Source: an uncultured Candidatus Saccharibacteria bacterium (GTDB lineage Bacteria; Patescibacteriota; Minisyncoccia; Phycocordibacterales; UBA6065). Taken from it: a DNA stretch of 64,000 nucleotides. The position numbers and the translations under genes are program-made. Positions within the stretch are counted from its first letter, which is position 1, and each line of letters opens with the position of its first letter. Shown piece by piece: positions 13,666 through 26,574 of the stretch. The stretch covers positions 64,153 to 128,152 of the forward strand of contig CAYJCZ010000003.1 in assembly GCA_964368835.1 (NCBI GenBank), read 5' to 3'. The notes under the pieces were generated by a model. It ran no database searches. It worked only from the letters and a program-made list of their open reading frames with translations, and was not told where the DNA came from.

Positions 13666-14415
13666 ATGTTAGAAAAATACCTCCAAGACATCGGATTTAC
13701 CGACAAAGAAGCAAAAGTCTATTTAACCCTACTTCAGGTTGATAATTCGTCGGTACTTGATCTTGCAAAGAAAACCAAGATAAAACGTCCCACAGTGTAT
13801 GTGGTACTTGAAACTCTTGCCAAAAAAGGCTTAGTAAGTGAATCAACTATAGGTAAAAAGGTTCATTATCATGCTGAATCACCTGAGCGACTTGCTACAT
13901 ATGTAGAAAGACAAAAAGTCATGCTTGATGACCAGGCCCGACAACTCAAAGATGTCATCCCCCAGATCAAGAGTATTCAGCGAGAAACTGGTGAAAAGCC
14001 AACTGTACAGTACTTCGAAGGAAAAGAAGGTATCAACAGCATGAACGAATCTCTTTATTATGACGAAGAAGAAGGTGGAACCGCCTATCTTGTATACTCG
14101 CGAGATCTGCTCGATAAGGTATTTCCACCCGAGGAGCGTAATAAGTTTAGAAATTCTCGTCTAAAGAAAAATATTAAGAGCAGAGTGCTCTATAACTATT
14201 CTCAAGGGGTCATTCCGTCTGATGAAACTGGTGAAAGGATAAAGATTGATGAAGTTCAGTACCCGTTTAGTTGTGACATAACTATTTATAAAGACAGGGT
14301 TCGTATCTCAATTTTAGGTAAAAAACTCTCGGGCATCTTTATTAAAAGCCAAGAATTCGCTGACACCCTAAAAAACCTATTCTCAGTTGCTTTTGATTCT
14401 CGTAAAAACAAATAG
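13666..14415 (+). CDS. TrmB-family transcriptional regulator
   Basis: 249 aa. The N-terminal wHTH (FTDKEAKVYLTLLQ...LDLAKKTKIKRPTVYVVLETLAKKGLV) matches the TrmB family. Confidence 0.8.
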   Translation: MLEKYLQDIGFTDKEAKVYLTLLQVDNSSVLDLAKKTKIKRPTVYVVLETLAKKGLVSESTIGKKVHYHAESPERLATYVERQKVMLDDQARQLKDVIPQIKSIQRETGEKPTVQYFEGKEGINSMNESLYYDEEEGGTAYLVYSRDLLDKVFPPEERNKFRNSRLKKNIKSRVLYNYSQGVIPSDETGERIKIDEVQYPFSCDITIYKDRVRISILGKKLSGIFIKSQEFADTLKNLFSVAFDSRKNK

Positions 14416-14794
14416 CCCCAATCACACTGGATTGGGGCTACCCTAGAAGAGGACAATTCGTTTAGTTTTTACGCTGACGAACGGTGTACTCTACTTGGAT
14501 GATTTGATTGATCTGCTCCACTTCGGAGAAGATTCAACAATATTGCTTTGAAGGAACAACTGATGATGTGAAGGTTTAGTCGCCCATGGTGGGTTACTCC
14601 TTTATTTTGAACCAACTTTACTGAACACTCGGCTTTTGGAGACTCGACGAAGTTTGGCAAGATGCCGCTTCCTGGTGGCTATGGGCTCACCAGGAAGCGG
14701 AACCCGCTTTACCTTAGTCGCTCATAGCGCCTCCTTTTTCAAGTGTTACCAATGGCAATTTTTTAAGGAATCAAATGATTACGCCATCAGTTCT
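14416..14794 (-). ncRNA. candidate minus-strand small RNA or leader unit (promoter to terminator, ~375 nt)
   Basis: Minus-strand promoter: TTGACA (plus coordinates 14830-14825), 17 nt, TAGACT (14806-14801). The transcript carries a 13 bp GC hairpin (14663-14705) flanked by two perfect-SD mini-ORFs, AAAGGAGG-ATGAGCGACTAA and AAAGGAG-ATGGGCGACTAA. It ends at the 14418-14440 hairpin. No ORF longer than 3 codons. Confidence 0.35.
14418..14440. terminator. hairpin terminator shared by trmB (+) and the convergent minus-strand unit
   Basis: ccccaatcacactggattgggg. Confidence 0.45.
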
Positions 14795-15069
14795 TTACCT
14801 AGTCTAGCAAATTTAAATCTAAATGTCAAGCTTTTTTGTCTTTTAGCTTTAATACCTATCTATACGCCAGTTTTAAGCCTATCTAGTAAGGAAATTTGAT
14901 AATTTCATATCTGTATTTATTTTTGACAGAAAAAACTTATTAGAGAATATTTAAAATATAAAGCAAGTTTATTTTGTAAATGTCAGGTGTATCATTTTTT
15001 ATTGTAGGTTATTAAACCATTATTTATAGGCATATAATAGGGTATTAAAATAGAATCTGTCAGATATAC

Positions 15070-15098
15070 TTGACAGAAATAGGGTTTAAGTATATACT
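15070..15098 (+). promoter_or_regulatory. strong sigma70-type promoter driving the hammerhead-ribozyme operon
   Basis: TTGACA (15070-15075), exactly 17 nt, TATACT (15093-15098). Confidence 0.65.
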
Positions 15099-15127
15099 AC
15101 TCAACAGATTATTCTTTGAGTCAAATT

Positions 15128-15222
15128 TGGTAACTTCTTAATGCCCCTGATACACGACCCGTCTCCCAGAAAATAACGAGACTGCTTGGCGAGTATCACC
15201 CGGAGGCATTAAGAAGTTACCA
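15128..15222 (+). ncRNA. structured 5' leader closed by a perfect 18 bp helix, function unknown
   Basis: tggtaacttcttaatgcc ... ggcattaagaagttacca pair perfectly over 18 bp. Inner helices ctgatac/gtatcac and cgtctc/gagacg. Starts about 25 nt after the predicted transcription start. Confidence 0.4.
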
Positions 15223-15474
15223 AAACCCCAACCCCAAATATAGAAACCATGGACTACAAAGTCTATCCTGACGGCACCGTTGAGGTGATCCGTCGCTATT
15301 AATCCTCCAGGAGGGATTCGTTCTACGTCGTAATGTGGTTTGAGCAAAATCCGGCTCTGTCAAAATAGGAAAAAAGTTTTGTCCCCATCTTTCTTAGAAA
15401 AGACGGCGAGCCATAAGGGAGCAGAACCTTTCGGGAGACAACCCGCGTAAAAACAACCAAGTCATCGACTTGGT

Positions 15475-15526
15475 TTCCGTCCCGAGATGTTTTCTCGGCT
15501 GATGAGTCCAAAAGGACGAAACGGAA
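15475..15526 (+). ncRNA. hammerhead ribozyme 1 (type III)
   Basis: Stem III ttccgt/acggaa, cleavage triplet GUC, stem I ccgaga(uguuu)ucucgg, core CUGAUGAG, stem II guccaaaaggac, then CGAAAC. Confidence 0.85.
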
Positions 15527-15606
15527 TGCTCTTTGAGAAATGTTGGTCTATACCTCCTCGCACTTAATTTTGAGTTCGAAGAGGTGTAGGCCATTCGTGT
15601 GGCCAT
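15527..15606 (+). repeat. module A' (diverged copy of the 84 nt post-hammerhead structured module)
   Basis: Aligns with 15931-16014. Stem positions differ with compensatory changes, and a C-A mismatch is kept at the same position in both hairpins. Confidence 0.6.
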
Positions 15607-15875
15607 CTAACCCTCCGCGGTTTTCTCCTCGACATACAGAGGGGTCCGTATGGAGTACCGCTAGATTCAGCTTTCATACCCGAAGGGTAATGACCGACTG
15701 AATAGTGTGGAAAAGAAACCCATGTCGGGTTTCATGAGGGAGACGTCCTAAAATTAAAGAATACATAAAAAATCTTTAATTACACGAATTATTTAGTTTC
15801 AAGCAAGGTTTAACTTAAAACCTGCCCGAAGGTTGTAGCAATTGAGTCTTCATGGACTCTTGCTCCCTTCGGATC

Positions 15876-15932
15876 CTGTCTCAGCCCAAGGCTGACTGAC
15901 GAGTCTTCCGAGCGATCGGCAAGACGAAACAG
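15876..15932 (+). ncRNA. hammerhead ribozyme 2 (type III)
   Basis: GUC site, stem I ucagcc(caa)ggcuga, core CUGACGAG, extended stem II with a bulged C capped by a GCGA GNRA tetraloop, CGAAAC, stem III cugu/acag. Confidence 0.85.
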
Positions 15933-16014
15933 AATGTTCTTTAAAAATCTGGCCTGTACCATCTTGAATTTAAGTTCTTGAGTTCAAAATGGTGTAGGTC
16001 AGTCGTGTGGCCAT
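15931..16014 (+). repeat. module A, copy 1 (84 nt conserved structured element after the hammerhead)
   Basis: 83 of 84 nt identical to 16828-16911. It folds into a long imperfect hairpin with closing helix ccugUacc/ggUGuagg. Confidence 0.8.
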
Positions 16015-16237
16015 TTCACCCAGAATTTCCTGCTGGACGATAGAGCAGGAAAGAATGACCCCAAGAGGGCAAAGTGATTCTGTCCAAGTTTCACTATAAG
16101 GGGCCAGTAACCCTAAGCGAAAAGCACACGAATATTTAGTTGGTTTAGAAGAAACCAACCAGGAGAGAGGTAGAACTCGACGGAATCCAAGAGGATTCTA
16201 TTAGTCGGCTACCAACCTCTCCTGCAAGTGTCTCCGT

Positions 16238-16285
16238 CTCAGACGGACTGATGAGCTTTCCGATTTGTTCGGCAAAGCGAAACAC
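16238..16285 (+). ncRNA. hammerhead ribozyme 3 (type III)
   Basis: gugu-C site, stem I uccguc(uca)gacgga, CUGAUGAG, stem II gcuuuccgauuuguucggcaaagc with a bulged C, CGAAAC, stem III gugu/acac. Confidence 0.85.
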
Positions 16286-16302
16286 AGATGTTCTTTGAAT
16301 AA

Positions 16303-16359
16303 GTTGGTTTCGGAAGCGAGTGCATAAATGTGCTATGTGCGCTCACTTCCGAAACCAAC
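16303..16359 (+). repeat. module B hairpin, copy 1 (~21 bp stem) between a hammerhead and the cargo ORF
   Basis: gttggtttcggaagcgagtgc ... gcgctcacttccgaaaccaac. Homologous hairpins at 17219 and 18434 show compensatory base-pair changes. Confidence 0.75.
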
Positions 16360-16414
16360 ACAATCGATAATCTCCCATTCGGGATGACACGGTTCACTGT
16401 GGTGAGGAATTCTT

Positions 16415-16732
16415 ATGGCTAACGCAACCAAATCCTCGAAGGTCTTAGTGACCTACACGCCGCATCGTCTCGGCCACTCGCTCGCCCAGAAGTTATGGGA
16501 GCGGGGCTTGTCGAAGGATCGGCAAGTTGGCCTCGACAGCGAGGCACATGTCATCTTGTATGACGAGGTAAAGGAAGCCGCTGAAGGCTTCGCGGAGGAT
16601 CCTCGGGTTCTCCGGATTGTGGTAGCGACGGAAATGCCGCCCCACCTTCCCAAGGGGATATTCTGGATCAAACCAGATGTCCAGGCTTTCACTAGCCTTA
16701 TCCGGACGTTAAATCCGGGAAGTGAAATGTAA
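16415..16732 (+). CDS. cargo ORF 1: GC-rich hypothetical protein (105 aa)
   Basis: GAGGAA SD 7 nt upstream of the ATG. GC is well above the window average. No recognisable domain. Confidence 0.55.
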   Translation: MANATKSSKVLVTYTPHRLGHSLAQKLWERGLSKDRQVGLDSEAHVILYDEVKEAAEGFAEDPRVLRIVVATEMPPHLPKGIFWIKPDVQAFTSLIRTLNPGSEM

Positions 16733-16771
16733 TGAGATGGGTACATATAAACCCCATCCACCCTGCAATAA

Positions 16772-16829
16772 AACGCAGGTTCTGTCCGAAGATGTATATC
16801 TTCGCTGATGAGCTCTAAAGAGCGAAACA
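16772..16829 (+). ncRNA. hammerhead ribozyme 4 (type III)
   Basis: uucugu-C site, stem I cgaagau(guau)aucuucg, CUGAUGAG, stem II gcucuaaagagc, CGAAAC, stem III uucugu/acagaa. Confidence 0.85.
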
Positions 16830-16911
16830 GAATGTTCTTTAAAAATCTGGCCTGTACCATCTTGAATTTAAGTTCTTGAGTTCAAAATGGTGTAGGCCAG
16901 TCGTGTGGCCA
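16828..16911 (+). repeat. module A, copy 2
   Basis: Near-identical to 15931-16014, with a single t/c difference. Confidence 0.8.
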
Positions 16912-17143
16912 TTCATCGGAGCTTGTGTTGGAACAAGTGCGTGATAAGTGCCGAAGGTAGATATAGACTGCAGTCTATATTTCTACTAAAAGGGTTGTCC
17001 TGATCAGGCAACCTAAGACTCTGGTGTCTCCCACCTAAGTACACACGAATAGTTTGTAGCGGTTTTTAGAAGAGAAACCGCTCCGGAGAAGGTCTGATGT
17101 TTGTTGAATCATGTGATTCCAAATGTCCACCTGTCTCCGGCTA

Positions 17144-17198
17144 GTGTCTCCGTTTTAAACGGACTGACGAGCTTTCCATTTTTGGCAAAGCGAAACAC
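17144..17198 (+). ncRNA. hammerhead ribozyme 5 (type III)
   Basis: gugu-C site, stem I uccguu(uua)aacgga, core CUGACGAG, stem II gcuuuccauuuuuggcaaagc with a bulged C, CGAAAC. Homologous to HHR3. Confidence 0.85.
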
Positions 17199-17218
17199 AG
17201 ATGTTCTTTGAATAAAAA

Positions 17219-17271
17219 GTTGGTTGTGGAAGATAGATCAGAAAATTTCTGGCTTTTCTTCCACAACCAAC
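17219..17271 (+). repeat. module B hairpin, copy 2
   Basis: gttggttgtggaag ... cttccacaaccaac, perfect 14 bp. Differs from copy 1 at covarying positions. Confidence 0.75.
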
Positions 17272-17328
17272 GCAACCGATAAGCTCCCGACAGGGATGAC
17301 ACGGCTCGCAATGGCGCGGAATCACTTC

Positions 17329-18009
17329 ATGAATACGAACAAACTAAATGTCTTGGTTTTTGATGACAGCAAGATTCATCGCGCCGCCGCGCAAGCCCAG
17401 CTCAAGGAGCACAACCTCACGGTCGTAGGCACCTACGATGAGACCCAGGAACTCATCACGCCGAAACTAGATTACAAACGGGCTGAGGGAATCGTCCGAA
17501 AGGAATTCCCGGATTTCAAGCCCTACGATAATGGCGTGAGCAAGGAGCAGAGAGACGCCTATCAGGCCGCGTGGAAGAGGGCCAACCAAGAGGCCACCAC
17601 GTATCCCACATTTGATGTGGTTCTCACCGATCTCCTCGTCCCTGCTTCAAAGCAGGCGCAAGGACCCGATGGATACCAATTCATCGGCCAGGAGATGCCG
17701 GTCGGGGTCTTTATCGCATTGCTTGCGGCAGCCAAGGGGAAAGTGAAACACGTAGCCGTCTTCACCGACAGCGACCATCACTCTCATCCGGCCTCTGCTT
17801 GCTTCGATAGATTCAACGAGGGCGAGGGCAATCCGACGCCGTTTATGGTGAATGGCTGTAAGTTCCTGCTTTCAAACAGCAGGGGCTGGGTCAACCATTT
17901 CGACCCCAACGATCTTGCCAAGGAATTGAAGTATGAAGAATACAAGGGCAGATCGGATACGGTAAGGGCGAAAAACTGGAAGGCCCTTCTTGACTACCTG
18001 CTCACGTAG
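17329..18009 (+). CDS. cargo ORF 2: GC-rich hypothetical protein with a CheY/receiver-like N-terminal segment
   Basis: Start moved to the ATG at 17329, after the conserved leader; the listed 17224 start lies inside the module B hairpin. The motifs NVLVFDDS and DVVLTDLLVP resemble a receiver fold but with atypical spacing. About 55% GC. Confidence 0.55.
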   Translation: MNTNKLNVLVFDDSKIHRAAAQAQLKEHNLTVVGTYDETQELITPKLDYKRAEGIVRKEFPDFKPYDNGVSKEQRDAYQAAWKRANQEATTYPTFDVVLTDLLVPASKQAQGPDGYQFIGQEMPVGVFIALLAAAKGKVKHVAVFTDSDHHSHPASACFDRFNEGEGNPTPFMVNGCKFLLSNSRGWVNHFDPNDLAKELKYEEYKGRSDTVRAKNWKALLDYLLT

Positions 18010-18120
18010 TCGTCGGCGCGGCAACTCCCGGGAGATCCAAGTGGATCGCGATGAACCGGCGGAGATGGAGAAAACCATCTTGGCAACAGAATCAAAACAC
18101 TGGGTCAGAAAAGATCCTGT

Positions 18121-18169
18121 CTGTCCATCGATGTGTATCGATGCTGATGAGCTCTAAAGAGCGAAACAG
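18121..18169 (+). ncRNA. hammerhead ribozyme 6 (type III)
   Basis: cugu-C site, stem I caucgau(gugu)aucgaug, CUGAUGAG, stem II gcucuaaagagc, CGAAAC. Stem III extends to aagauc/gaucuu. Confidence 0.85.
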
Positions 18170-18198
18170 AACGATCTTTAAAACCAAAAAAGGAGAAT

Positions 18199-18306
18199 TA
18201 TGAAAATCAAAATGCCGAACCGCATGGATACTTATCGCGCCGTGCGCAAAGTGCTTCCACCGCCGTCAAAAGCTTTTGCCCCAAGCAAAGGCAGAGGCGG
18301 TTATGA
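18199..18306 (+). CDS. cargo ORF 3: very small basic protein (35 aa) directly after HHR6
   Basis: Strong SD AAAGGAGA 7 nt upstream. Reads MKIKMPNRMDTYRAVRKVLPPPSKAFAPSKGRGGL. A +1 frame continues to 18349, so a longer frameshifted form is possible. Confidence 0.3.
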   Translation, partial: YENQNAEPHGYLSRRAQSASTAVKSFCPKQRQRRL

Positions 18307-18368
18307 CCGCAAGCGCGAGAAACGCGATTCCAGAATGGGGTTCGAATGATTTACATCAATGCTCTTTT

Positions 18369-18417
18369 CTGTTTCGAGATGTGTATCTCGACTGATGAGT
18401 CCTAAAGGACGAAACAG
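18369..18417 (+). ncRNA. hammerhead ribozyme 7 (type III)
   Basis: cugu-U site, stem I ucgagau(gugu)aucucga, CUGAUGAG, stem II guccuaaaggac, CGAAAC. Confidence 0.85.
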
Positions 18418-18433
18418 ATGTTCTTTGAATATA

Positions 18434-18484
18434 TTGGTTTCGGAATAAAGTCCACTCGATGAGCTGACTTTATTCCGAAACCAA
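18434..18484 (+). repeat. module B hairpin, copy 3
   Basis: ttggtttcggaataaagtc ... gactttattccgaaaccaa, perfect 19 bp. Third covarying variant. Confidence 0.75.
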
Positions 18485-18563
18485 AGCCACTGATAAGTCC
18501 CTCTAGTTCCTATTTCATAGGGATAAGAGATGACACAGCTGTGCCAAGGGGAGGAATACCACC

Positions 18564-18869
18564 ATGAAGAAATTCATCCTGTCAGTGTTCGCCCTGTTGG
18601 CCTTCTCCGCGGCTCTGTTCGCCACCGATGACAAGAAGCCCTCCACGCCCTTAGGGTTCAAGGAGGCCGAGATCATCGGCACGGTCAAGGAGATCGTGGT
18701 CGTCAACGCCGATCGTAACCTCCAGTATTGGACGGTGAAGGTCGACGGCAAGGACGCGCCCTACCACCTCTTCACCGACGAAAAGGGCAAAGTCGGCGAG
18801 CGCATCGTCATTTACGTGATGGTGCGGGTAGGCGGCCAAGTGAGCTGGATCAAAGTGAGGCCCCTTTGA
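18564..18869 (+). CDS. cargo ORF 4: GC-rich small secreted protein (101 aa, signal peptide)
   Basis: GGGAGG SD. N-terminal MKKFILSVFALLAFSAALFA signal peptide. High GC. Confidence 0.55.
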   Translation: MKKFILSVFALLAFSAALFATDDKKPSTPLGFKEAEIIGTVKEIVVVNADRNLQYWTVKVDGKDAPYHLFTDEKGKVGERIVIYVMVRVGGQVSWIKVRPL

Positions 18870-19347
18870 TCAGTGAGTTGCGGAACTCAACAAAACCCGC
18901 TCTTGCATCCCGATCGATGCAAGTATATGTAATGTAGCTATTTCATCTGAATCAGATGGAATATCGGTCCCAAGCCCGCGTAAATACAGAGGGTCATTAT
19001 CCAAGCCCAGAAAGAGAGCTCCGCAAGGAGATGGGAAATGCTTGAGCGAATCCTGATCAGGTTTGCCATCGTGTTAGATCCAGCGGAATCTGGACGCGTT
19101 GTCACAACGACGCACGACTGAATCTGCTATTTCCAGCAGATAAGTTGTCGGCATTAAGATTGCCGAAAGTTCATGGCTGAACATTCATTGCTCTTTACAT
19201 CAAAACATCAAAACTTAGGCGCCGGGAGAATCGAGAAAATCTCCCTTGCCTGTCACGACTCGAATCACTCTTGTGTAAATCTAAGACAGTAGGCATCCTG
19301 AAAAGGAAGAAGCCCTACCGAGATTTATAAAGGAGGTTTAGAAGATA

Positions 19348-19380
19348 ATGACGAATGACCGTTCCAATCCTTGCACATAG
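19348..19380 (+). other. micro-ORF (10 aa) behind a perfect Shine-Dalgarno
   Basis: AAAGGAGG followed 8 nt later by ATGACGAATGACCGTTCCAATCCTTGCACATAG (MTNDRSNPCT). Confidence 0.2.
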
Positions 19381-19590
19381 TGCAGGCTACTGATTGATAA
19401 GCCCCGGGAGCATACGGAACGGTAAAAATGTTACGTTTTAAAACGACAATCCTACAACCAGCAAATTGGTTGGGTAACATCAAACATCTCGCCGGAGGGT
19501 TCGCCTAAAAAACGAACCCTCCCTTTATCAGGCTTGCGAATGGTTCGTCGGCCTGTAGAGACCGCTCTTTCACAACATATTAAGGAAATT

Positions 19591-19866
19591 ATGAACCTCA
19601 AGATATTCATTCCCGGAGATAGCCCTGTATCACGGGTGCTCCGTCAGACCTTGGATAAGAAGATCCAAGTTGAAAGTCAGGAAGAAGCGAGCGTGGTGAT
19701 CGCGCTTACTGTGGAGTCTCTGTTTGACCACTACCTGAAGTCAACTCCACCCACACAAGATTTCGTGCTCTTCAGCTTAGAGTACGTGGAAAAGCTTCCA
19801 GCGAGGGTAGTCTGGATCGAGGGAAGCCTCGTCCCGCTCCTTGCGTATCTTCAAACAAAAGTGTAA
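19591..19866 (+). CDS. cargo ORF 5: hypothetical protein (91 aa)
   Basis: AAGGAA SD before the internal ATG at 19591. The listed ORF start at 19534 has no SD. Confidence 0.45.
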   Translation: MNLKIFIPGDSPVSRVLRQTLDKKIQVESQEEASVVIALTVESLFDHYLKSTPPTQDFVLFSLEYVEKLPARVVWIEGSLVPLLAYLQTKV

Positions 19867-19915
19867 AAAACTTCGAGAGACAACTCGTAAAAACCCGAGA
19901 CTAAAGGCTCGGTAT

Positions 19916-19963
19916 CTGTAGCGAAGTGTAACTTCGCCTGATGAGTCCAAAAGGACGAAACAG
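19916..19963 (+). ncRNA. hammerhead ribozyme 8 (type III)
   Basis: cugu-A (GUA) site, stem I gcgaagu(guaa)cuucgc, CUGAUGAG, stem II guccaaaaggac, CGAAAC. Confidence 0.85.
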
Positions 19964-20012
19964 AATGTTCTTTAAATAATTTTTCTTCCCGCACTGTAAA
20001 CCAAATAGAAAA

Positions 20013-20195
20013 ATGAAAACAACTGCAATCATAGTCGGACTCGTGCTAGGCACCTGGGGATTAGTCGGCGGATACTTATTGATCCGTGATCGTCATAACA
20101 GCGTTGCCCCACGAACCATTGGTATCGTGAGTCTCGTTGGCATGATGAGTTCCGCGATCGTCTTGACGCTCGCAATCGCCACCATGGCAGAGTAA
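20013..20195 (+). CDS. cargo ORF 6: small membrane protein (60 aa, two TM segments)
   Basis: Hydrophobic ORF 50 nt after HHR8. Confidence 0.4.
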   Translation: MKTTAIIVGLVLGTWGLVGGYLLIRDRHNSVAPRTIGIVSLVGMMSSAIVLTLAIATMAE

Positions 20196-20228
20196 GACTA
20201 ATCGGTTCTAGGTTATCCTCAAAACCTA

Positions 20229-20277
20229 CTGTTTCGGAATGTGTATTCCGACTGATGAGCTCAAAAGAGCGAAACAG
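20229..20277 (+). ncRNA. hammerhead ribozyme 9 (type III)
   Basis: cugu-U site, stem I ucggaau(gugu)auuccga, CUGAUGAG, stem II gcucaaaagagc, CGAAAC. Followed by a 13 bp hairpin (20300-20347) and then the ORF. Confidence 0.85.
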
Positions 20278-20401
20278 AATGATCTTTAAAAAACTTCAAA
20301 CTTCGTCATAGCAGAAAGCGGCTACTCCTGGCCTCTCCCTGCTATGACGAAACCATTACGGCCAAGTCCTCTAGCGAAAACTAAATCAAGGATATAAACT
20401 C

Positions 20402-21199
20402 ATGAAAACTGAGGCAAAAACCATGACACCCGGCCAAGCTTTCCAGCTTATGGCTGTTATCGCTCAGAAACTCGGTAAAATCGGTCTCGACTTCGATTCG
20501 GCAGAAATGCTCATTGGCAAACCAGACCTTACTCTTAAGCGCTTACGAGCACTTAAGAGTGAAAAGATAGTGAATCCTGCTAATGTGGCCACCAATCGGT
20601 TTACAGTGATCGAAAGTTTGGAAATTGAAAATTTGCCAAACTGCACTTCAATGGATCAGGTTCTCGATTATCTGTTACTCGACAAGCAAATTGAAAAATA
20701 TTTGAAGTCGCCTGAATATGATTCGATGAAATACAATGACCACCATAGCTATTGTGCAAGGGATAAATCCCTTTTCAAAAGCACAACGGTGAATCAGCCA
20801 ATGTATCCTCTTCCTATCTTCAGAGAGGCTCTCGATTACTGTGGGCCAGATAATGGGATTTGGGAACTTCTGTATCGTCGTAAGGCACTTTTTACGATCG
20901 ATGAAGTCTTAGGTTTTCTCTGTGGATTAATAAACACAGGTGAAGATCCATTAGGATTGCTGGAATCGGGTTACAGCACGGTTTGGTTTCCTGTTGTTCT
21001 TCATCGTCCAGGAGAATTCTGGGATATCAAGACCGAAGCCGTTACTCTCGTAAGGATTAGTAAAGGCGAGTTGTTGAAAAAACAACTCACCTGGCATGTC
21101 GGATTTTACGGCGTGCACAATGTGATCTCCATACGAGAAGGGGTCTCTCAAATTGTTTATTTTGCAAATGATCCGCGCATTCGCTCGCGTCAGGAGTAA
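20402..21199 (+). CDS. cargo ORF 7: hypothetical protein (265 aa)
   Basis: AAGGA SD. No recognisable domain. Confidence 0.6.
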   Translation: MKTEAKTMTPGQAFQLMAVIAQKLGKIGLDFDSAEMLIGKPDLTLKRLRALKSEKIVNPANVATNRFTVIESLEIENLPNCTSMDQVLDYLLLDKQIEKYLKSPEYDSMKYNDHHSYCARDKSLFKSTTVNQPMYPLPIFREALDYCGPDNGIWELLYRRKALFTIDEVLGFLCGLINTGEDPLGLLESGYSTVWFPVVLHRPGEFWDIKTEAVTLVRISKGELLKKQLTWHVGFYGVHNVISIREGVSQIVYFANDPRIRSRQE

Positions 21200-21212
21200 A
21201 ATAACCTCGAAA

Positions 21213-21239
21213 CCGTGTCTCACAAACACGGTTTTTTTA
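21213..21239 (+). terminator. rho-independent terminator closing the hammerhead operon
   Basis: aaaccgtgtctcacaaacacggttttttt. Confidence 0.8.
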
Positions 21240-21258
21240 TTGGTATACTTTAGATATG
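21228..21258 (+). promoter_or_regulatory. second copy of the extended -10 leaderless promoter (tttttattgGTATACTttagatATG)
   Basis: Identical at 23 of 24 nt to 10950-10979. Placed immediately before the NUDIX gene ATG. Confidence 0.55.
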
Positions 21259-21702
21259 GATAAGTTACTAAATACTCGAATTCGAGCAGTTGCAATTGTC
21301 ATCAAAGATGACTCTGTTTTGCTTATGCATAGAATTAATAAAGATCGAGGTGAATATTGGACATTCATTGGCGGTGGAGTCGAGGAAGGTGAATCTGTCG
21401 AAGATGCTGTAATACGAGAGTTGTATGAAGAGGCTTCGTTAAAGGCTTCAATAAATAAATTATTTACCATTATTAAAAACGATGGGTCCGCAAGATATCA
21501 CCATACTGCGGAGCATCACTTTTATTTGTGTGACTATATTTCAGGAACACCTAAATTTGGAAATGGGCCAGAGCACATGACGGCTGACAATATCTACGAT
21601 CCTCAGTGGGTAAATATTGATATGTTTAAAAAGTTAAATCTTTACACAGAGGAAGTAAAAAATAAGTTAATTGATTATCTTGAAAATAAAAAAGATAGAT
21701 AA
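21256..21702 (+). CDS. NUDIX hydrolase
   Basis: Nudix box GGGVEEGESVEDAVIRELYEEAS. Confidence 0.8.
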   Translation: MDKLLNTRIRAVAIVIKDDSVLLMHRINKDRGEYWTFIGGGVEEGESVEDAVIRELYEEASLKASINKLFTIIKNDGSARYHHTAEHHFYLCDYISGTPKFGNGPEHMTADNIYDPQWVNIDMFKKLNLYTEEVKNKLIDYLENKKDR

Positions 21703-21705
21703 TGT

Positions 21706-22689
21706 ATGCAAGAGCTTTTAACAAAAATTAATGAGTTATACGGGAAAATAGTTACTAATCCTCAAAAAGTCACAGGAGGATTTTTGAGCGAGAACTATTT
21801 TCTAGAAGAAGGTGATAAGAGATACTTTCTCAAAAAATATAGATTCAATAACGCCAAGAGGATTGAAGAGGTTCACGCATCTAAAAAATACTTTTCTGAC
21901 GGAGGTATTCCCGTAATTCTACCCATTCCTCTTTTAAACGGTAAGACCTATTTTTCTTATAATGAAGGTTATTATGCACTCTTTCCATTTATTGATGGTA
22001 GACAAGTAGATAGGGGTAATATGAACCATGCTGAAATTATTTCCCTCGGTGAGATGTTGGGAAGAATTCATTTACTCGGTAAGGTGGCAAAAGTGGCAAA
22101 TGAAGATCGTTTTAAAATTGAAAATAAAGAAAAGACGTTTAAAAAGATAGAGGATATTCTAATCGAAATACACAATAAAGACACTTTGAGTAATTTTGAT
22201 AAAACAGCTGTTGAAAACATTGAACTCAAGAAACAACTCCTTTTATCTAACACATTAACTTTTGAGAATCTTAATTTACCTTGTGATCATTTAATACATG
22301 GTGACTATCTTGATCATAATGTGTTTTTTGATAATCAGCATAAAGTTTTTGCTGTCTTTGACTTTGAAAAGACGAGCTACTCACCTAGAACATATGAACT
22401 GTTCAGGTCTATGATCTACGGAATGATTAGTGATGATTTTTCAGAAAAAAGCTTGGGTGACGCAAAAATATATCTTGATGCGTATGTCCGTATTTATACT
22501 ATATCAAAAGATGAGATTAAAAGAGGTTTACAGTTATTCCTACTCAAATCTATTCATGGATTTTGGGTTGAAAGTGAACATTATCTAAAAAACAATAACC
22601 GAGTAGATGAATTCTTGTTTAACGATTTAAAGAAGATTAAATACTTATCAAAGAATCTAGAAAAGTTTACTAAATTTCTTACAGGGTAA
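21706..22689 (+). CDS. APH/choline-kinase-like phosphotransferase
   Basis: Catalytic loop LIHGDYLDHNVFFD (HGDxxxxN) and a DFE metal-binding motif. 327 aa. Confidence 0.8.
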   Translation: MQELLTKINELYGKIVTNPQKVTGGFLSENYFLEEGDKRYFLKKYRFNNAKRIEEVHASKKYFSDGGIPVILPIPLLNGKTYFSYNEGYYALFPFIDGRQVDRGNMNHAEIISLGEMLGRIHLLGKVAKVANEDRFKIENKEKTFKKIEDILIEIHNKDTLSNFDKTAVENIELKKQLLLSNTLTFENLNLPCDHLIHGDYLDHNVFFDNQHKVFAVFDFEKTSYSPRTYELFRSMIYGMISDDFSEKSLGDAKIYLDAYVRIYTISKDEIKRGLQLFLLKSIHGFWVESEHYLKNNNRVDEFLFNDLKKIKYLSKNLEKFTKFLTG

Positions 22690-22716: not shown

Positions 22717-24012
22717 CTAGCTGATATCATCTTTAAGAAAAATCTGTTTTTCTTTTAGAGTTATTTTACTTTTCAGACACCCCAACAGCTCCCTCTTTTC
22801 TGAATCATTTCCTTCTCTCAACACAAATTTTGTGTAATTTCGTATATCAATATCACCAACTACGATTTTTTCTTTGATGCCGAGCACCATTCGCTGAAAA
22901 CTTTTGAATCGTTCAACCTCAGTCTTAATCTGATCTTTTATACCTATCTCATCTAGGTCTATTGCATCCATTAATTTCTCAAACTGTTTGATTAGATCTT
23001 CCTCATTGATATATCCGCACTTGCATTTCTTATCCCTGACTTTTGTACATATGTAATAAACATGTCTATTCATAGTACCGTCTCTCAATTTCTTAAATTT
23101 CTCGTCAGCGGTTATCCCTGAACCACACAATCCACAAGTCATTAGTTTGGTAAAGGCGAATTCTTTATTTTCCGTCCTCACAAAAAGACTTTTTACCTGC
23201 TGTTGTGCCAGATCAAACAATTCTTTATTTATTAGAGGAATATGCTTGCCTGTATACCAATTACCGCTCTTCACTGGGTACTCAAAGACTCCGTAGTAAA
23301 AAGGGTTCTGTAGTATTAGGTATACATTTCCTAAAGTCAGACCTTTCTTACCTGTAATGCTCTTAAAATTCAAATCGAATTTCAACCAGTGATATATTTT
23401 GTTACCGCTCCATTTTTCATAAGCAACTTTTTCAAATATTTTTCTAATAACTGGACCTCGTTCGGGATCAACAATCGCCTGACACTTCCTATCCATATGT
23501 CTTTCGTTGAGATACCCCACAGGAGGTTGTCCTGGCCGTAGTCCCATTTCACACCTTGTCCTCAAACCACGCTTCACATTGATACTCTTGTTGTCATTTT
23601 CAAGTTTGGCTTGCGAACAAAGAATCATGAGGAGGAACTTCTCGTTTGGTGAGTTCCTAAATTGTTGTCCGTAGGTTTTGATCTCAATAAGGTGTTTTTG
23701 ATCCATTAAATCAACTACAGATCCTAGATCTCCAGCATTACGACTCAACCTATCGGGTGCCCATGTGAGGATTCCATTAAATTTATCTCCTCTTATATCC
23801 TCTAATATTTCTTTAAATACTGGTCGTTGCCCAGAATCTTTGGCCGAATGAGATTCTCTCCGAATATCAATAACTTCAAGTTGATCACGCTCGGCAATTT
23901 TCAGCATTTCCTTAACCTGTGATTCTATTGATAAGGCTTGTTTCTCGTCTTGCTCAGTACTCTTTCTTGCGTATAGACAATATCGCACCTTGATCGTTGG
24001 AATCACAGCCAT
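22717..24012 (-). CDS. large serine recombinase (resolvase domain, recombinase domain and zinc ribbon)
   Basis: Catalytic region YARKSTEQDEKQALSIESQ; C-terminal CxxC...CxC zinc ribbon. Start set at Met33 (24012). In-frame alternatives at 24045 and 24108. Confidence 0.85.
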   Translation of the reverse strand: MAVIPTIKVRYCLYARKSTEQDEKQALSIESQVKEMLKIAERDQLEVIDIRRESHSAKDSGQRPVFKEILEDIRGDKFNGILTWAPDRLSRNAGDLGSVVDLMDQKHLIEIKTYGQQFRNSPNEKFLLMILCSQAKLENDNKSINVKRGLRTRCEMGLRPGQPPVGYLNERHMDRKCQAIVDPERGPVIRKIFEKVAYEKWSGNKIYHWLKFDLNFKSITGKKGLTLGNVYLILQNPFYYGVFEYPVKSGNWYTGKHIPLINKELFDLAQQQVKSLFVRTENKEFAFTKLMTCGLCGSGITADEKFKKLRDGTMNRHVYYICTKVRDKKCKCGYINEEDLIKQFEKLMDAIDLDEIGIKDQIKTEVERFKSFQRMVLGIKEKIVVGDIDIRNYTKFVLREGNDSEKRELLGCLKSKITLKEKQIFLKDDIS

Positions 24013-24228
24013 TTTGCCTATAAGGGCTGTCGTTTGTGTTTCCATACGACCATTAATGACAGAACCGTTGGTTTTGCTAAGCGAGTGATGTTGGCAACGT
24101 GTAGACAACTATCCTTAGCAAAATAGCTAATCAGCGATACTATGTTGGACTGGTAACGGTTTTGGCGTTATCATAATCCATGACAATTCAATAGGTAAAG
24201 TAGCCTAACCCATCGAGCAATCGGTGGC

Positions 24229-25107
24229 ATGGTGAAAGTTAGTCGATCAAGCATAAAAAACCCGTCATGGGGTTGCTTGATCGCCGTATGGGGAAACCTG
24301 TACGAGGGACTTCGGTTCCTACCCGTGGCGGGCTTTTTGTTCGCCGCACATTACAAGCCGATCAAGCAAAATATGCACATTGTTTTTATCTTACTTTCCT
24401 TTTTGGCATTTCTAGGATTTTTTGCAGGACTCATTAAACCTTCGTGGTTTAAGATGAAATCCCGCAGACAATCATCAGGAGTGTTTGCCGGAACTTTCGT
24501 CCTTCTTATGATCCTTACGATCATCGCTTCTCCGGCAGAAGAAGTGCCTCCATCTGTTGTCGTTCAGTCAACTGCGCCAGCAGTAGCTCAACCTGTCGTA
24601 GCGACGGAGCCAGTTCAGCCGCCAAAGCCAAAAACCCGAGAAGAGCTCATTACGCAAAAGATAGAAGCTTCACTTGGGGCTACGACCAACACAAGCAAAC
24701 CGCGCGTAGTTTCCGTCGAACTCACAGCCTACAAATCATCTGAATTGAGTACTTATGGATATGCCTCGACCAATACCGTCCAAGGCGCATTCATCAAGAC
24801 AAATGCGAGCGAGAATCTCACATCGAATCTCCAGAAGATGACCTTGCATAAAGAAGCGGCAAAAATATTTCAAGACACTTTCTCATCTTTCTCACAGATT
24901 GGTGATGTGATTATTTGGGAAAGACTGCCCGTGAGCGACCAATATGGAAATCAAAAGGATGATACGGCGATTGTATATGCTATGAGCCGATCATTGTATG
25001 ACAAAATTAACTGGGCAAGCTTCTCATACACAACCTTGCCAGATCTCCTGAAGTCAGAGGGTCATACCGATGACCGAAATTCGTATTACGAAGCGATCCG
25101 ATTCTAG
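24229..25107 (+). CDS. membrane-anchored hypothetical protein
   Basis: 292 aa with TM helices near the N-terminus (a possible internal start at 24373), then a Pro/Thr/Val-rich linker and a C-terminal domain. Confidence 0.5.
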   Translation: MVKVSRSSIKNPSWGCLIAVWGNLYEGLRFLPVAGFLFAAHYKPIKQNMHIVFILLSFLAFLGFFAGLIKPSWFKMKSRRQSSGVFAGTFVLLMILTIIASPAEEVPPSVVVQSTAPAVAQPVVATEPVQPPKPKTREELITQKIEASLGATTNTSKPRVVSVELTAYKSSELSTYGYASTNTVQGAFIKTNASENLTSNLQKMTLHKEAAKIFQDTFSSFSQIGDVIIWERLPVSDQYGNQKDDTAIVYAMSRSLYDKINWASFSYTTLPDLLKSEGHTDDRNSYYEAIRF

Positions 25108-26574
25108 TCAGACAAAATAAATCATTGGCGATACTCGTGATTGTTGCAGGGCTTCAAGCGATCCCATATACATCATCACGAAAGCGTCAGCTAGATCATC
25201 GTGTGATTCTCGGCCTTGGCCTGTAAGTTGAGCTATAAGTTGTTTAGCTCCTTTCTTTGGGAATAAGATAATGCCGTCAATGATGCTTGGTGCAGTAAGT
25301 GTTACCCTCGACTTCTTATCCGTCGTGTTCTTTATAGGCACCACGTCCAAGCCTCCTCTCGACAGGAATTCAGCATAGATCTCCTGAAATCCGTTCGTTT
25401 CAATAGCTACTTTCGGATTCGCGTAGCATCCGCTGAAGTGAAGCTGTTTTGCTTTCTTGTTTATAGCGTTGATGGTCTCATGGAAGTGCATACGCTCATT
25501 GACTATGTTCGGAACCACAAGAATTCTGTTTTCTCCTTTGTAATCACAGATTACTCCTGTCACAAGAGCGGTATAGTCGGCACTATCCTTTTGAGAGATA
25601 GCCAAATCAACACCGATAAACGCTCCGTATGTCGAAAATTCTCGCATGTCGTCGAGACTTTCGCAGTCATGGTACTTAATCCACTCGGGATGTACCGCTC
25701 TACTGCTATCAGAGATTATCTTCAAGAGATATTCTTGTTGCCAAGCTATTTCATTAGCCACGCTCTGCCGCAGAGTTTCGATTTTTTCTTTCGTATCGAA
25801 CTTTCCGGGCCATAAGCATTCGCCGCTATCTGTCACTAGGGGAAACCACTTGAATATTCCCTTAAGCTCGTTGTCTTCTATGCGCCTCCGAAGCCTCATG
25901 ATAAGCGAATCTTCATGTAGGAGGTTTCCAACAATGATTATCCGAGTTCCCAAATCGCCGAGAGGTACTATCTCGCGAGTGAACCAGTCGAATATCTTGT
26001 TCCTACCCTCCATGGTCTTTGTTGAGCTGAGATCCTCCACATCATCGAGGATGATGAGATCGGGTCTATTCTCGTGATGTCGGATTCCTCGGATGCTCTG
26101 GTCTATCGAGGCAATCGTGATTCGGGAGTTCGTATTACTGAATATGAGCGAGTGCGCACCCCATTCTCCCGATTCTTCCTGAAAGGGGCCTAGATCGCCC
26201 TTTAAGAGTCTATTTGTCTCCAATTCATATCGGAGGTTAGCCATGTGCTGTTTAGCCTGCGCTTGGGTCTGACAGATAATGAGAACGAATCTCTTTTTCT
26301 GCACACCGAGGATAGACCAGATCGCATAGGAGAATGTAATCAAGGTAGATTTTCCAGAGCCACGAAACGCAACAATACACGCAAGCTTATTCGACTGATC
26401 TTCGGTGATTCGGAAAATGTCTTTGTGGAATTCAGCGACGGAATATTTGACGTAATGCGGGAAATAGACGAGAAAGAACATCATATGGCTTTGCCTTGTG
26501 ATTTCGGATCGAATGATTCGGTCATGCAGGATTTTCTGCATTAATTCTTCGGAGATTGTGTTATTTTCCATCAT
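25108..26574 (-). CDS. phage terminase large subunit
   Basis: 488 aa. Walker A AFRGSGKST in the ATPase domain, followed by an RNase H-like nuclease domain layout. Confidence 0.8.
   Translation of the reverse strand: MMENNTISEELMQKILHDRIIRSEITRQSHMMFFLVYFPHYVKYSVAEFHKDIFRITEDQSNKLACIVAFRGSGKSTLITFSYAIWSILGVQKKRFVLIICQTQAQAKQHMANLRYELETNRLLKGDLGPFQEESGEWGAHSLIFSNTNSRITIASIDQSIRGIRHHENRPDLIILDDVEDLSSTKTMEGRNKIFDWFTREIVPLGDLGTRIIIVGNLLHEDSLIMRLRRRIEDNELKGIFKWFPLVTDSGECLWPGKFDTKEKIETLRQSVANEIAWQQEYLLKIISDSSRAVHPEWIKYHDCESLDDMREFSTYGAFIGVDLAISQKDSADYTALVTGVICDYKGENRILVVPNIVNERMHFHETINAINKKAKQLHFSGCYANPKVAIETNGFQEIYAEFLSRGGLDVVPIKNTTDKKSRVTLTAPSIIDGIILFPKKGAKQLIAQLTGQGRESHDDLADAFVMMYMGSLEALQQSRVSPMIYFV

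Follow-up and report, generated by a model that had tools for sequence, protein, structure and literature searches.

The synthetic insulator RiboJ, attributed to Lou et al. in 2012, is said to join the sTRSV hammerhead ribozyme to a 23-nucleotide (nt) hairpin, the short hairpin reportedly being designed to expose the ribosome-binding site (RBS). In nature, clustered hammerheads flank genes in polycistronic transcripts of bacteria and prophages, which they process, and these arrays are often found near integrase genes that group with prophages (Perreault et al. 2011, PMC3088659). Here we analyze a stretch of 64,000 nt from an uncultured Candidatus Saccharibacteria bacterium (contig CAYJCZ010000003.1, positions 64,153 to 128,152; the whole stretch is called the window in the following). 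Within it, a plus-strand transcription unit of ~6.1 kb, from a promoter at 15070 to a terminator at 21209, contains nine type III hammerheads and one twister, and three of the hammerheads are followed by copies of one block of RNA, which we call module A. The original prediction took this block for a discrete new structured module of 84 nt. We find that the hairpin at its center is a structured RNA under selection on the plus strand, and that it is the lineage-specific version of a widespread hammerhead accessory. As to its role, we see about an even chance that the module forms the leader of an RNA set free by hammerhead self-cleavage, in which the hairpin would act as a nuclease roadblock or as a recognition structure for RNA with a 5′-hydroxyl (5′-OH) end.

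As in the arrays of PMC3088659, several consensus hammerheads on one strand are found between short genes without annotated function, and a long transcript is predicted to be cut to gene-length pieces; just as those arrays lie near integrase genes, a serine recombinase and a terminase are encoded 1.5-4 kb downstream in our case. Unlike in those arrays, nine hammerheads and a twister are packed into ~5 kb of a Patescibacteria chromosome, and three of the pieces do not code for protein; in addition, a conserved linker is present on the 3′ side of every hammerhead, and most have a hairpin of ~24 base pairs (bp) as well. Neither the linker, nor the ~24-bp hairpin, nor non-coding units running from hammerhead to hammerhead are described in the searched text of PMC3088659 and PMC6765202 or in the wider full-text literature that was searched, though absence there does not prove novelty.

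That the block is repeated was confirmed in two ways. A repeat search returned a 91-nt family at 15925-16015 (the reference), 16823-16913 (99%) and 15517-15607 (60%), and a covariance model of the block (R1) found exactly three plus-strand copies in the window (A1 to A3, Table 1), the next plus-strand match scoring 17 bits. The near-identity on which the original prediction was built, i.e., 83 of 84 nt shared between 15931-16014 and 16828-16911, is therefore upheld along with its diverged third copy, and the sole difference (T16004/C16902, GGTCAG/GGCCAG) turns a G.U pair into G-C. The same unbranched hairpin is formed in every copy (-33.4, -29.9 and -35.0 kcal/mol, with z-scores of -4.4, -6.0 and -7.0, for A1, A2 and A3; the reverse strand folds worse, with -23.7 and -17.5 kcal/mol), its stem alone amounting to -27 to -33 kcal/mol and 21-24 predicted pairs, and it starts 4-7 nt past the linker. 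Between A1 and A2/A3, the compensatory swaps that had been seen at the outset are real: one A-U pair becomes U-A and two U-A pairs become C-G, while the helix core CCUGUACC/GGUGUAGG with its tandem G.U pairs is retained.

Homologues from outside the window add to this. When the three copies were aligned with their one orthologue, which we call L018, RNAalifold gave 24 pairs, 4 of them changed on both sides and 5 on one side (G.U to G-C or A-U); 97.9% of the cells in this four-sequence alignment are paired, versus 28-45% with slid partners, and the 4 double changes were matched by 3 of 500 shuffles. Upon addition of a distant relative, L058, 9 of the 24 pairs are changed on both sides and 96.7% of the cells are paired, and none of 500 shuffles matched any of five measures. 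The covariation speaks for selection on RNA structure and not on protein, as had been supposed, and the G.U pairs, which exist on the plus strand only, and the lack of a conserved open reading frame (ORF) point the same way. Stop-to-stop frames reach at most 54 codons in the cut-to-cut units that contain the copies (54 codons, not conserved, in that of A1; no ORF beyond 34 codons in that of A2), and peptide similarity among the units is limited to the identical nucleotide block, where it is seen in all three frames; a protein-coding reading of the module was rejected on these two observations.

A repeated helix could also be a matter of DNA, for instance an inverted repeat that serves recombination or gene conversion, or simply a recent duplication, with no function in RNA. 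One may cite for this that the 99% identity between A2 and A3 extends over 91 nt with sharp boundaries, beyond which the flanks cannot be aligned, that short-read assemblies of the same organism break inside the block, and that different gene cassettes follow the conserved leaders in the window and in L018. However, six helix positions hold G.U pairs, which on the opposite strand would turn into A.C mismatches, and the differences between copies run from G.U to G-C or A-U, next to full compensatory swaps. Furthermore, R1 scores the module at 27-35 bits on the minus strand versus 94-110 bits on the plus strand, and in 42 analogous hairpins at other loci there are about six G.U pairs for every A.C mismatch (see below). 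An explanation at the level of DNA strikes us as extremely improbable.

True homologues of the block are few, namely L018 and L058. L018 is a syntenic metagenome contig of the Joint Genome Institute (JGI). It has the TrmB gene and the promoter in common with the window, next a leader ORF of 17 codons that is conserved, and then a short unit; it continues with a hammerhead and module A unit (338 nt, with the same predicted tail helix and a center that differs from those of the window units) and with a hammerhead and a second kind of leader (type B, see below), behind which a different gene is found. In L058, the homologous hairpin (40 bits) has the core CCUACACC/GGUGUAGG and the tail GACCACUUCACC, and it heads a structured non-coding RNA of more than 500 nt (z -10.3). 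The comparison also settles a detail of the helix. A C.A mismatch had been reported at the same stem position in all copies, and it is indeed found after pair 14 in all three copies and in L018, but the position is an A-U pair in L058, such that the mismatch is not essential.

At twenty-odd other loci, R1 gives 22-40 bits; the architecture is common there, the sequence is not. Searches with other tools returned no further copies. The pattern GGTGTAGG..TCGTGTGGCCA(T) had no match in viral contigs, and its single match in species-representative genomes, which falls within a coding region of an Acidobacteriota metagenome-assembled genome, is a chance match; a structure-aware pattern gave 14 matches in viral contigs, none of which was confirmed by a covariance model, and a blastn search against phages yielded no match. 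Close TrmB homologues are found in L130 (same organism), in L134 (the organism of L018), and in L133 and L135, which have a hammerhead and the linker and no module A. Homologues of the 226-amino-acid (226-aa) ORF of the operon are common in genomes of the Candidate Phyla Radiation (CPR), and their loci are without hammerheads. We note that short-read assemblies of the source organism and its relatives (L130, the end of a Logan ERR4405439 contig, as well as L131, L132 and L134) are interrupted within the repeated hammerhead and module sequence or immediately behind it; such loci will be under-represented in public assemblies.

In a region this rich in ribozymes (nine hammerheads and a twister), the module might be an additional self-cleaving ribozyme, as the original prediction had considered, or a riboswitch-like element that binds a ligand. 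New classes such as pistol, hatchet and twister-sister were discovered through just such proximity (PMC6765202), and the neighborhood here resembles theirs in its wealth of self-cleaving ribozymes. Unlike them, the module consists of one long, near-perfect helix without a conserved internal loop, junction or pseudoknot core; its only conserved mismatch is the C.A pair that L058 replaces, its apical loop is variable, and outside the linker and the tail no unpaired position is conserved. Rfam gave no match to the module at gathering score in the whole window or at E ≤ 10 in 14000-19000, for ribozyme or riboswitch families or any other, the only overlap being with a plant microRNA model at E 9.1. 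The remark that no known self-cleaving class fits the block stands, as there was no module match to the pistol, hatchet, twister-sister, twister, HDV-like, hairpin and VS models, whereas the idea of a further ribozyme finds no support here, and we consider it very improbable. An intrinsic terminator was likewise rejected, since no terminator is called at any module copy and the helix is followed by UCGUGUGGCCAU and not by a U-run.

The discrete 84-nt module of the original prediction did not hold up. The block is a composite, made up of the end of hammerhead stem III, a linker, the 24-bp hairpin and a tail. The start of the block had been read as stem III of the upstream hammerhead, and this is correct for ACAG(A)(A), the 3′ strand, which amounts to 4-6 nt (ACAG or ACGG plus A and A); the rest of ACAGAAUGUUCUUUAAA pairs with the upstream flank no better than chance. 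At 105 non-redundant hammerhead sites, pairs 3-5 of stem III are formed with the upstream flank in 99%, 98% and 72% of cases, after which pairing falls to the level of shuffled sequences, from which we conclude that only ACAG(A)(A) belongs to the stem. At the same sites, native and partner-swapped duplexes have equal energies (-4.4 vs -4.5 kcal/mol, p 0.88), and UGUUCUUUAAA as an extension of stem III into the upstream flank was ruled out, given that pairing is at shuffled level past pair 5.

What follows stem III is a linker, GWUCUUURA, which is present 3′ of all nine hammerheads of the window and for which no pairing is seen, be it to the upstream flank or to stem II. A competition with stem II, which would create an alternative inactive fold, was examined and rejected: the linker variant does not track the sequence of stem II (GCUC never occurs with GAGC), and alternative pairing between the two is thus unsupported. 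The more relaxed pattern GNUCUUURA, 3-7 nt after GAAAC, is found in all three module copies, at all nine hammerheads and at more than 100 metagenomic sites. The presumed start of the primary transcript (15105-15226) shows the layout of a hammerhead leader minus the hammerhead, i.e., a linker-like CAGAUUAUUCUUUGAG followed by a hairpin, and L018 has GAUCUUUGA in the same place. Judging from this, the linker appears to work for the downstream RNA and not for the ribozyme.

The hairpin, too, can be seen in the context of other hammerheads. A metagenome scan for hammerhead core plus linker gave at least 120 stretches, and among the matches listed, 108 of 129 sites show a well-formed stem I together with a GUH cleavage site. 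A strong hairpin (ΔG ≤ -20 kcal/mol) is found at 42% of 97 non-window sites among the matches listed, with a median start 5 nt past the linker, compared with control values of 3% for shuffled sequences, 10% for upstream sequence and 15% at random positions. The sizes of these hairpins peak at 24-25 bp, and 70% of them fall into the range of 22-26 bp, as compared to 37% of other strong hairpins from the same loci (Fisher p 1e-5). A set of 42 such hairpins holds 134 G.U pairs versus 23 A.C 1x1 mismatches, an excess which argues that the helices are selected as sense-strand RNA. In the window itself, 7 of 9 hammerheads have a hairpin of 20-24 bp 4-12 nt after the linker: the three of module A, three of type B, and one before a 265-aa ORF. 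We therefore define the cassette as a hammerhead with linker and an unbranched, sense-strand-selected hairpin of ~22-26 bp within ~10 nt of the linker, and the module copies agree with it in the linker as well as in the size and position of the hairpin. In a widespread subfamily of type III hammerheads, the linker is a general extension on the 3′ side, and the ~24-bp hairpin is a recurrent accessory.

A second conserved leader, type B, is found behind hammerheads 3, 5 and 7 (16284-16414, 17197-17328 and 18414-18563, plus strand). It consists, in this order, of the linker, a UUGGUUUCGGAAG.. hairpin, CAAYCGAUAA, a small variable hairpin, GAUGACACGG and an RBS; the hairpin of its first copy (B1) has 14 bp and then a C.A mismatch, as in the module. 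The leader fronts three unrelated ORFs, and its orthologue in L018 (minus strand, ~672-800) shows compensatory changes and a different gene behind it. Type B looks like a portable, cassette-like element. At yet another locus, L012, Rfam reports a match to transfer-messenger RNA (tmRNA; 65.2 bits) at 2959-3028 (plus strand), ~300 nt past a hammerhead with linker and 24-bp hairpin. In this 70-nt tRNA-like domain, which is not called by ARAGORN, an acceptor stem, a T-arm and a CCA-proximal end can be made out, while an mRNA-like domain is lacking.

A helix of such narrow size brings to mind ribonucleases. The early mRNA of phage T7 carries RNase III processing hairpins between its genes, which are imperfect and span about two helical turns. 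The hairpins described here are similar in that they, too, are imperfect, are about two turns long, lie between the cistrons of a polycistronic transcript and in some cases have internal mismatches; the difference is that a ribozyme just upstream already makes the inter-cistronic cut. It is conceivable, then, that linker and hairpin together constitute a processing signal for a host ribonuclease or a dock for a protein that binds double-stranded RNA. In the processing version, RNase III would cut the ~24-bp helix, or an enzyme of the RNase Y/E type would cut the U-rich linker guided by the stem, and the hammerhead would be removed from the mature RNA. The narrow length of ~24-25 bp (RNase III takes helices of ~20 bp or more and leaves 2-nt 3′ overhangs), a linker that is conserved although it is paired neither to the upstream flank nor to stem II, the median start of the hairpin 5 nt past the linker, the frequent 1x1 mismatches within the helices, an RNase Y gene in the locus of a CPR relative, and the transcript's own 5′ end with linker and hairpin but no hammerhead would all make sense under this explanation. 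Against it, the positions of the mismatches vary among hairpins, and a cut by RNase III would destroy the proposed protective structure. Judged from the sequences, a hairpin of constrained length next to a conserved single-stranded linker would fit a signal for a ribonuclease or a dsRNA-binding protein equally well as it would a roadblock; taking all points together, we hold the former to be rather unlikely.

The RNAs that module A heads deserve consideration in their own right. Each copy lies in a stretch that runs from one hammerhead cut to the next (units A1-A3, Table 1), and all three stretches are predicted to fold very stably. The tail UCGUGUG(G/A)CCAY is conserved in all copies, and its UCGUGUG is predicted to pair with CACACGA ~120-190 nt downstream (15782-15788 in A1), which would close a bundle of 4-5 hairpins whose sequences cannot be aligned between units. 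Folding yields this helix in both the minimum free energy (MFE) structure and the centroid of A1, in A2, and in the centroid of A3, and the orthologous L018 unit, folded without a shuffle control, has it as well. After the bundle come a GGUUU..AAACC hairpin and a second, long one, whose end lies a few nt short of the next cut. Tail and distal motif are the only conserved islands outside the module hairpin. With a closing helix and terminal hairpins predicted inside cut-to-cut stretches, the units would be excised as three compact non-coding RNAs (ncRNAs) of 352-399 nt, structured at both ends, with the module as their 5′ domain. The tail, which the original prediction had included in its module, would accordingly have its partner outside of the block.

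Several other identities for these units or their tails were considered and dropped. There is no complementarity of more than 13 nt between the units and the rest of the window, which speaks against an antisense regulator with a target inside the window; ARAGORN made no call in the A units or related loci that would indicate a tRNA- or tmRNA-like RNA; and the palindromic UGGCCA in the tail, a potential dimerization or switch element, is not conserved (UGACCA in L018, AGACCA in L058).

Units of similar build exist elsewhere. Highly structured and seemingly non-coding stretches of 300-460 nt run from hammerhead to hammerhead in L015 (2256-2647) and L051 (minus strand), in L025 (2564-2873) and L090 (373-681), in L031 (minus strand) and in L098 (minus strand), of which L015/L051 and L025/L090 are homologous pairs; all start with the linker and a ~24-30-bp hairpin, and their last element is a hairpin directly ahead of the next cut. 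In size (a few hundred nt), hammerhead boundaries, extensive base-pairing and ligatable ends, the A units resemble the hammerhead-bounded circular RNAs, i.e., viroid-like RNAs and retrozymes (PMC7229834). They differ from them in lying on a bacterial chromosome, in being dissimilar units instead of tandem identical monomers, in their dissimilar flanking hammerheads (the 5′ hammerhead and the 3′ half-site of an A unit derive from different ribozymes), and in the absence of a reverse transcriptase.

Such units raise the question whether the module hairpin serves the RNA that it heads and not the fate of its 5′ end. It could be the conserved handle of new trans-acting, ribozyme-excised ncRNAs, namely a scaffold or protein-binding 5′ domain in front of a variable body, in an RNA that might be circularized from its 5′-OH and 2′,3′-cyclic phosphate ends. 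Three paralogous units combine 5′ blocks that are 99% identical or covary with conserved tail and distal motifs and hypervariable, hairpin-rich centers. Further support is provided by the orthologous L018 unit with its different center, by the long structured RNA behind the related hairpin of L058, by hammerhead sites at both ends that would leave ligatable termini, and by the fact that an A unit always stands before a type-B leader and a gene. On the other hand, the window offers no antisense target beyond 13 nt, no partner protein was identified and the ORFs of the operon have no Pfam or PHROG match, and Perreault et al. searched for circular or spliced products of bacterial hammerhead arrays without seeing any (PMC3088659). 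We consider this explanation possible though not probable. We would be similarly tentative about the broader proposal that the A units and the analogous units elsewhere form an undescribed class of ribozyme-excised, structured ncRNAs of 300-460 nt that act in trans, be it as protein scaffold, decoy or guide, and are perhaps circularized. Its members may share a linker and ~24-bp hairpin as 5′ handle, a closing helix formed over a long range, a variable body of several hairpins, and a last hairpin at the 3′ end. If this were true, the cassette of linker and hairpin would amount to a natural and portable "RiboJ" by which the fate of RNAs in hammerhead arrays is set.

Of the functions named by the original prediction, a protective 5′ hairpin or a protein-binding element still appears to us the best reading. 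All nine hammerheads are type III, and this means that they cut on their 5′ side and are retained on the downstream RNA. Ribozyme products with a 5′-OH end are substrates of RNase J1 (Collins 2007, as reviewed in PMC3328962), and like in that glmS pathway, a ribozyme cut here would yield a 5′-OH RNA whose fate hangs on 5′-to-3′ decay. In bacteria that contain RNase J, such decay would follow the cut, as in the precedent of the glmS ribozyme, and classically it is blocked by a very stable stem-loop close to the 5′ end. The ~24-bp hairpin behind the ribozyme might thus be a roadblock or recruiting structure by which the released RNA survives, the last hairpin of the unit would shield the 3′ end, and the linker would probably be a single-stranded platform where a host factor binds or cleaves. 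In contrast to glmS, where the cut destabilizes the mRNA, the hairpin would here reverse the outcome, and it stands ~65 nt from the new 5′ end and not directly at it.

A number of observations weigh against this role. After cleavage, the 5′ end already lies within hammerhead stem I, with the hairpin ~65 nt further in, so that an extra hairpin may be redundant as a cap. There is no RNase J gene in the window, and the roadblock is something that we infer. Nor does equilibrium folding hint at any help for the ribozyme: the median probability of the native hammerhead fold is 0.0077 in the native context, 0.010 with the hairpin deleted and 0.0074 with its 5′ arm shuffled, which lends no support to a role as thermodynamic folding insulator. 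A generic roadblock, furthermore, would have no need of the invariant CCUGUACC/GGUGUAGG core or of two copies, A2 and A3, that are 99% identical within units that cannot be aligned otherwise; sequence-specific recognition or gene conversion is suggested by both. Moreover, the homologous hairpins available number five, three of them paralogues, and the tail/distal helix, which is longer in A1, shows a single one-sided change (G-C to G.U) and no true covariation.

The closest functional analogue of the cassette is, by its design, the synthetic RiboJ insulator. In both, the hammerhead is kept on the downstream RNA and is followed by a hairpin and then by an RBS or RNA body, and the natural units look like 5′ cassettes of the RiboJ type that are put to use again before different genes. 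Here, however, the hairpin measures ~24 bp, a conserved linker precedes it and, in the A units, no ORF follows; also, equilibrium folding shows no benefit of the hairpin for the hammerhead fold.

The features of the locus are collected in Table 1. The coding content of the window is that of a bacterial chromosome (a UvrD-like helicase, TopA, ClpB, IF2 and scattered tRNAs), and homologues of two local proteins are labeled by their sources as Nomura-, Taylor-, Berkel- or Moraniibacteria or as "Patescibacteria group", which makes a CPR bacterium the most likely source. The hammerhead operon is a single plus-strand unit that has a TrmB-family regulator (13666-14415) on one side and an APH kinase (21706-22689) on the other, and its transcription start site was placed from the promoter. 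A core pattern search found 9 hammerhead cores in the unit where 0.03 are expected by chance, and 7 of the 9 match the Rfam type III model (RF00008) with E 1e-8 to 4e-4. Upstream of each module copy, the features of RF00008 are present, that is, a CUGANGA...GAAA core, closed stems I and II, an open stem III, and cleavage after NUH. Hammerheads 7 and 9 also have a long hairpin on their 3′ side, and hammerheads 6 and 8 lead directly to an RBS and ATG.

Table 1. Positions in the window of module copies, hammerhead-bounded units, ribozymes and transcription signals.
Feature	Position	Strand	Details and evidence
Module copy A1 (diverged)	15523-15607	+	Linker GCUCUUUGA 15528-15536; hairpin 15544-15593; tail UUCGUGUGGCCAU 15594-15606; R1 93.8 bits
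Module copy A2	15931-16014	+	Linker GUUCUUUAA 15936-15944; hairpin 15949-16002; tail UCGUGUGGCCAU 16003-16014; R1 110.4 bits
Module copy A3	16828-16912	+	Linker 16834-16842; hairpin 16847-16900; tail UCGUGUGGCCAU 16901-16912; R1 109.4 bits
Unit A1 (399 nt)	15482-15880	+	Hammerhead 1 cut to hammerhead 2 cut; distal partner of tail UUACACGAAU 15780-15789; MFE -146.2 kcal/mol, z -7.7
Unit A2 (352 nt)	15881-16232	+	Distal CACACGA 16125-16131, then UUGGUUU..AAACCAA hairpin, then long 3′ hairpin; MFE -135.1 kcal/mol, z -7.4
Unit A3 (362 nt)	16787-17148	+	Distal CACACGA 17042-17048; MFE -139.2 kcal/mol, z -10.0
Promoter-like site	15070-15098	+	TTGACA-17-TATACT; 11/12 consensus positions; top site within 14300-21800; same site kept in L018
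Putative primary-transcript 5′ end	15105-15226	+	CAGAUUAUUCUUUGAGUCAAAUU, then hairpin with 19-bp base (UUGGUAACUUCUUAAUGCC..GGCAUUAAGAAGUUACCAA) enclosing ~57 nt; direct reading
Hammerhead 1, type III	15474-15527	+	RF00008 48.3 bits, E 1.2e-8; core pattern; cut 15481/15482 from stem I geometry
Hammerhead 2, type III, long stem II	15873-15935	+	Rfam 36.3 bits, E 2.9e-5; core pattern; cut 15880/15881 by geometry
Hammerhead 3, heads type-B leader and 105-aa ORF (16415-16732)	16226-16288	+	Core pattern, geometry, alignment; cut 16232/16233
Hammerhead 4	16779-16833	+	Rfam 46.2 bits, E 4.6e-8; cut 16786/16787
Hammerhead 5, heads type-B leader and 226-aa ORF (17329-18009)	17142-17201	+	Core pattern, alignment, geometry; cut 17148/17149
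Hammerheads 6-9	18118-18172, 18366-18420, 19913-19966, 20226-20280	+	All four with the same linker
Twister-P1-like element	18926-18998	+	54.8 bits, E 1e-10; gathering score 67.2 not reached
Terminator-like hairpin with U-run	21209-21235	+	Sole strong plus-strand terminator call between 15100 and 21300

Some further observations concern the surroundings of the module. Following the twister-P1-like element, ~580 nt (18999-19580) are devoid of a convincing ORF and possibly represent another ribozyme-led non-coding RNA. A segment just 5′ of hammerhead 1, CCCGCGTAAAAACA (15430-15455), resembles the twister core segment CCCGCGTAAATACA (18975-18988), and this may be a twister remnant or due to chance. 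The operon leader contains the 17-codon ORF MDYKVYPDGTVEVIRRY (15250-15303, plus strand), which may encode a leader peptide or micro-protein and has the versions MTYVVYPDGTIDVLSHD and MTYIVYPDGTIEIVRR in relatives (L018/L134 and L135). In the interval between the TrmB gene and the promoter, a conserved element (14655-14745) consists of a 13-bp hairpin (CCGCTTCCTGGTG..CACCAGGAAGCGG) followed by TAGTCGCTCATAGC and CCTCC; it is also present in L018, L133 and L135 and is without an Rfam match. Lastly, a LOOT RNA (RF03000, 73.7 bits) is found at 24202-24320 (plus strand), partly overlapped by an ORF at 24229-25107, and its neighbors are a large serine recombinase (22717-24108, minus strand) and a terminase-like gene (25108-26574, minus strand).

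The purpose of hammerheads in bacteria has been called elusive (PMC6765202), and the locus described here provides a concrete, testable design with which to address this question. Since the linker and a hairpin of constrained length accompany the ribozyme, remain attached to the RNA that is released, and recur at more than 100 metagenomic sites, the relevant unit may be "ribozyme plus leader". The cassettes are natural counterparts of RiboJ and could be mined as parts. Furthermore, some products of hammerhead arrays would, as predicted by folding, be compact ncRNAs of 350-400 nt and not mRNAs, and such products would point to ribozymes as a means by which bacteria of reduced genome size mature stable RNAs.

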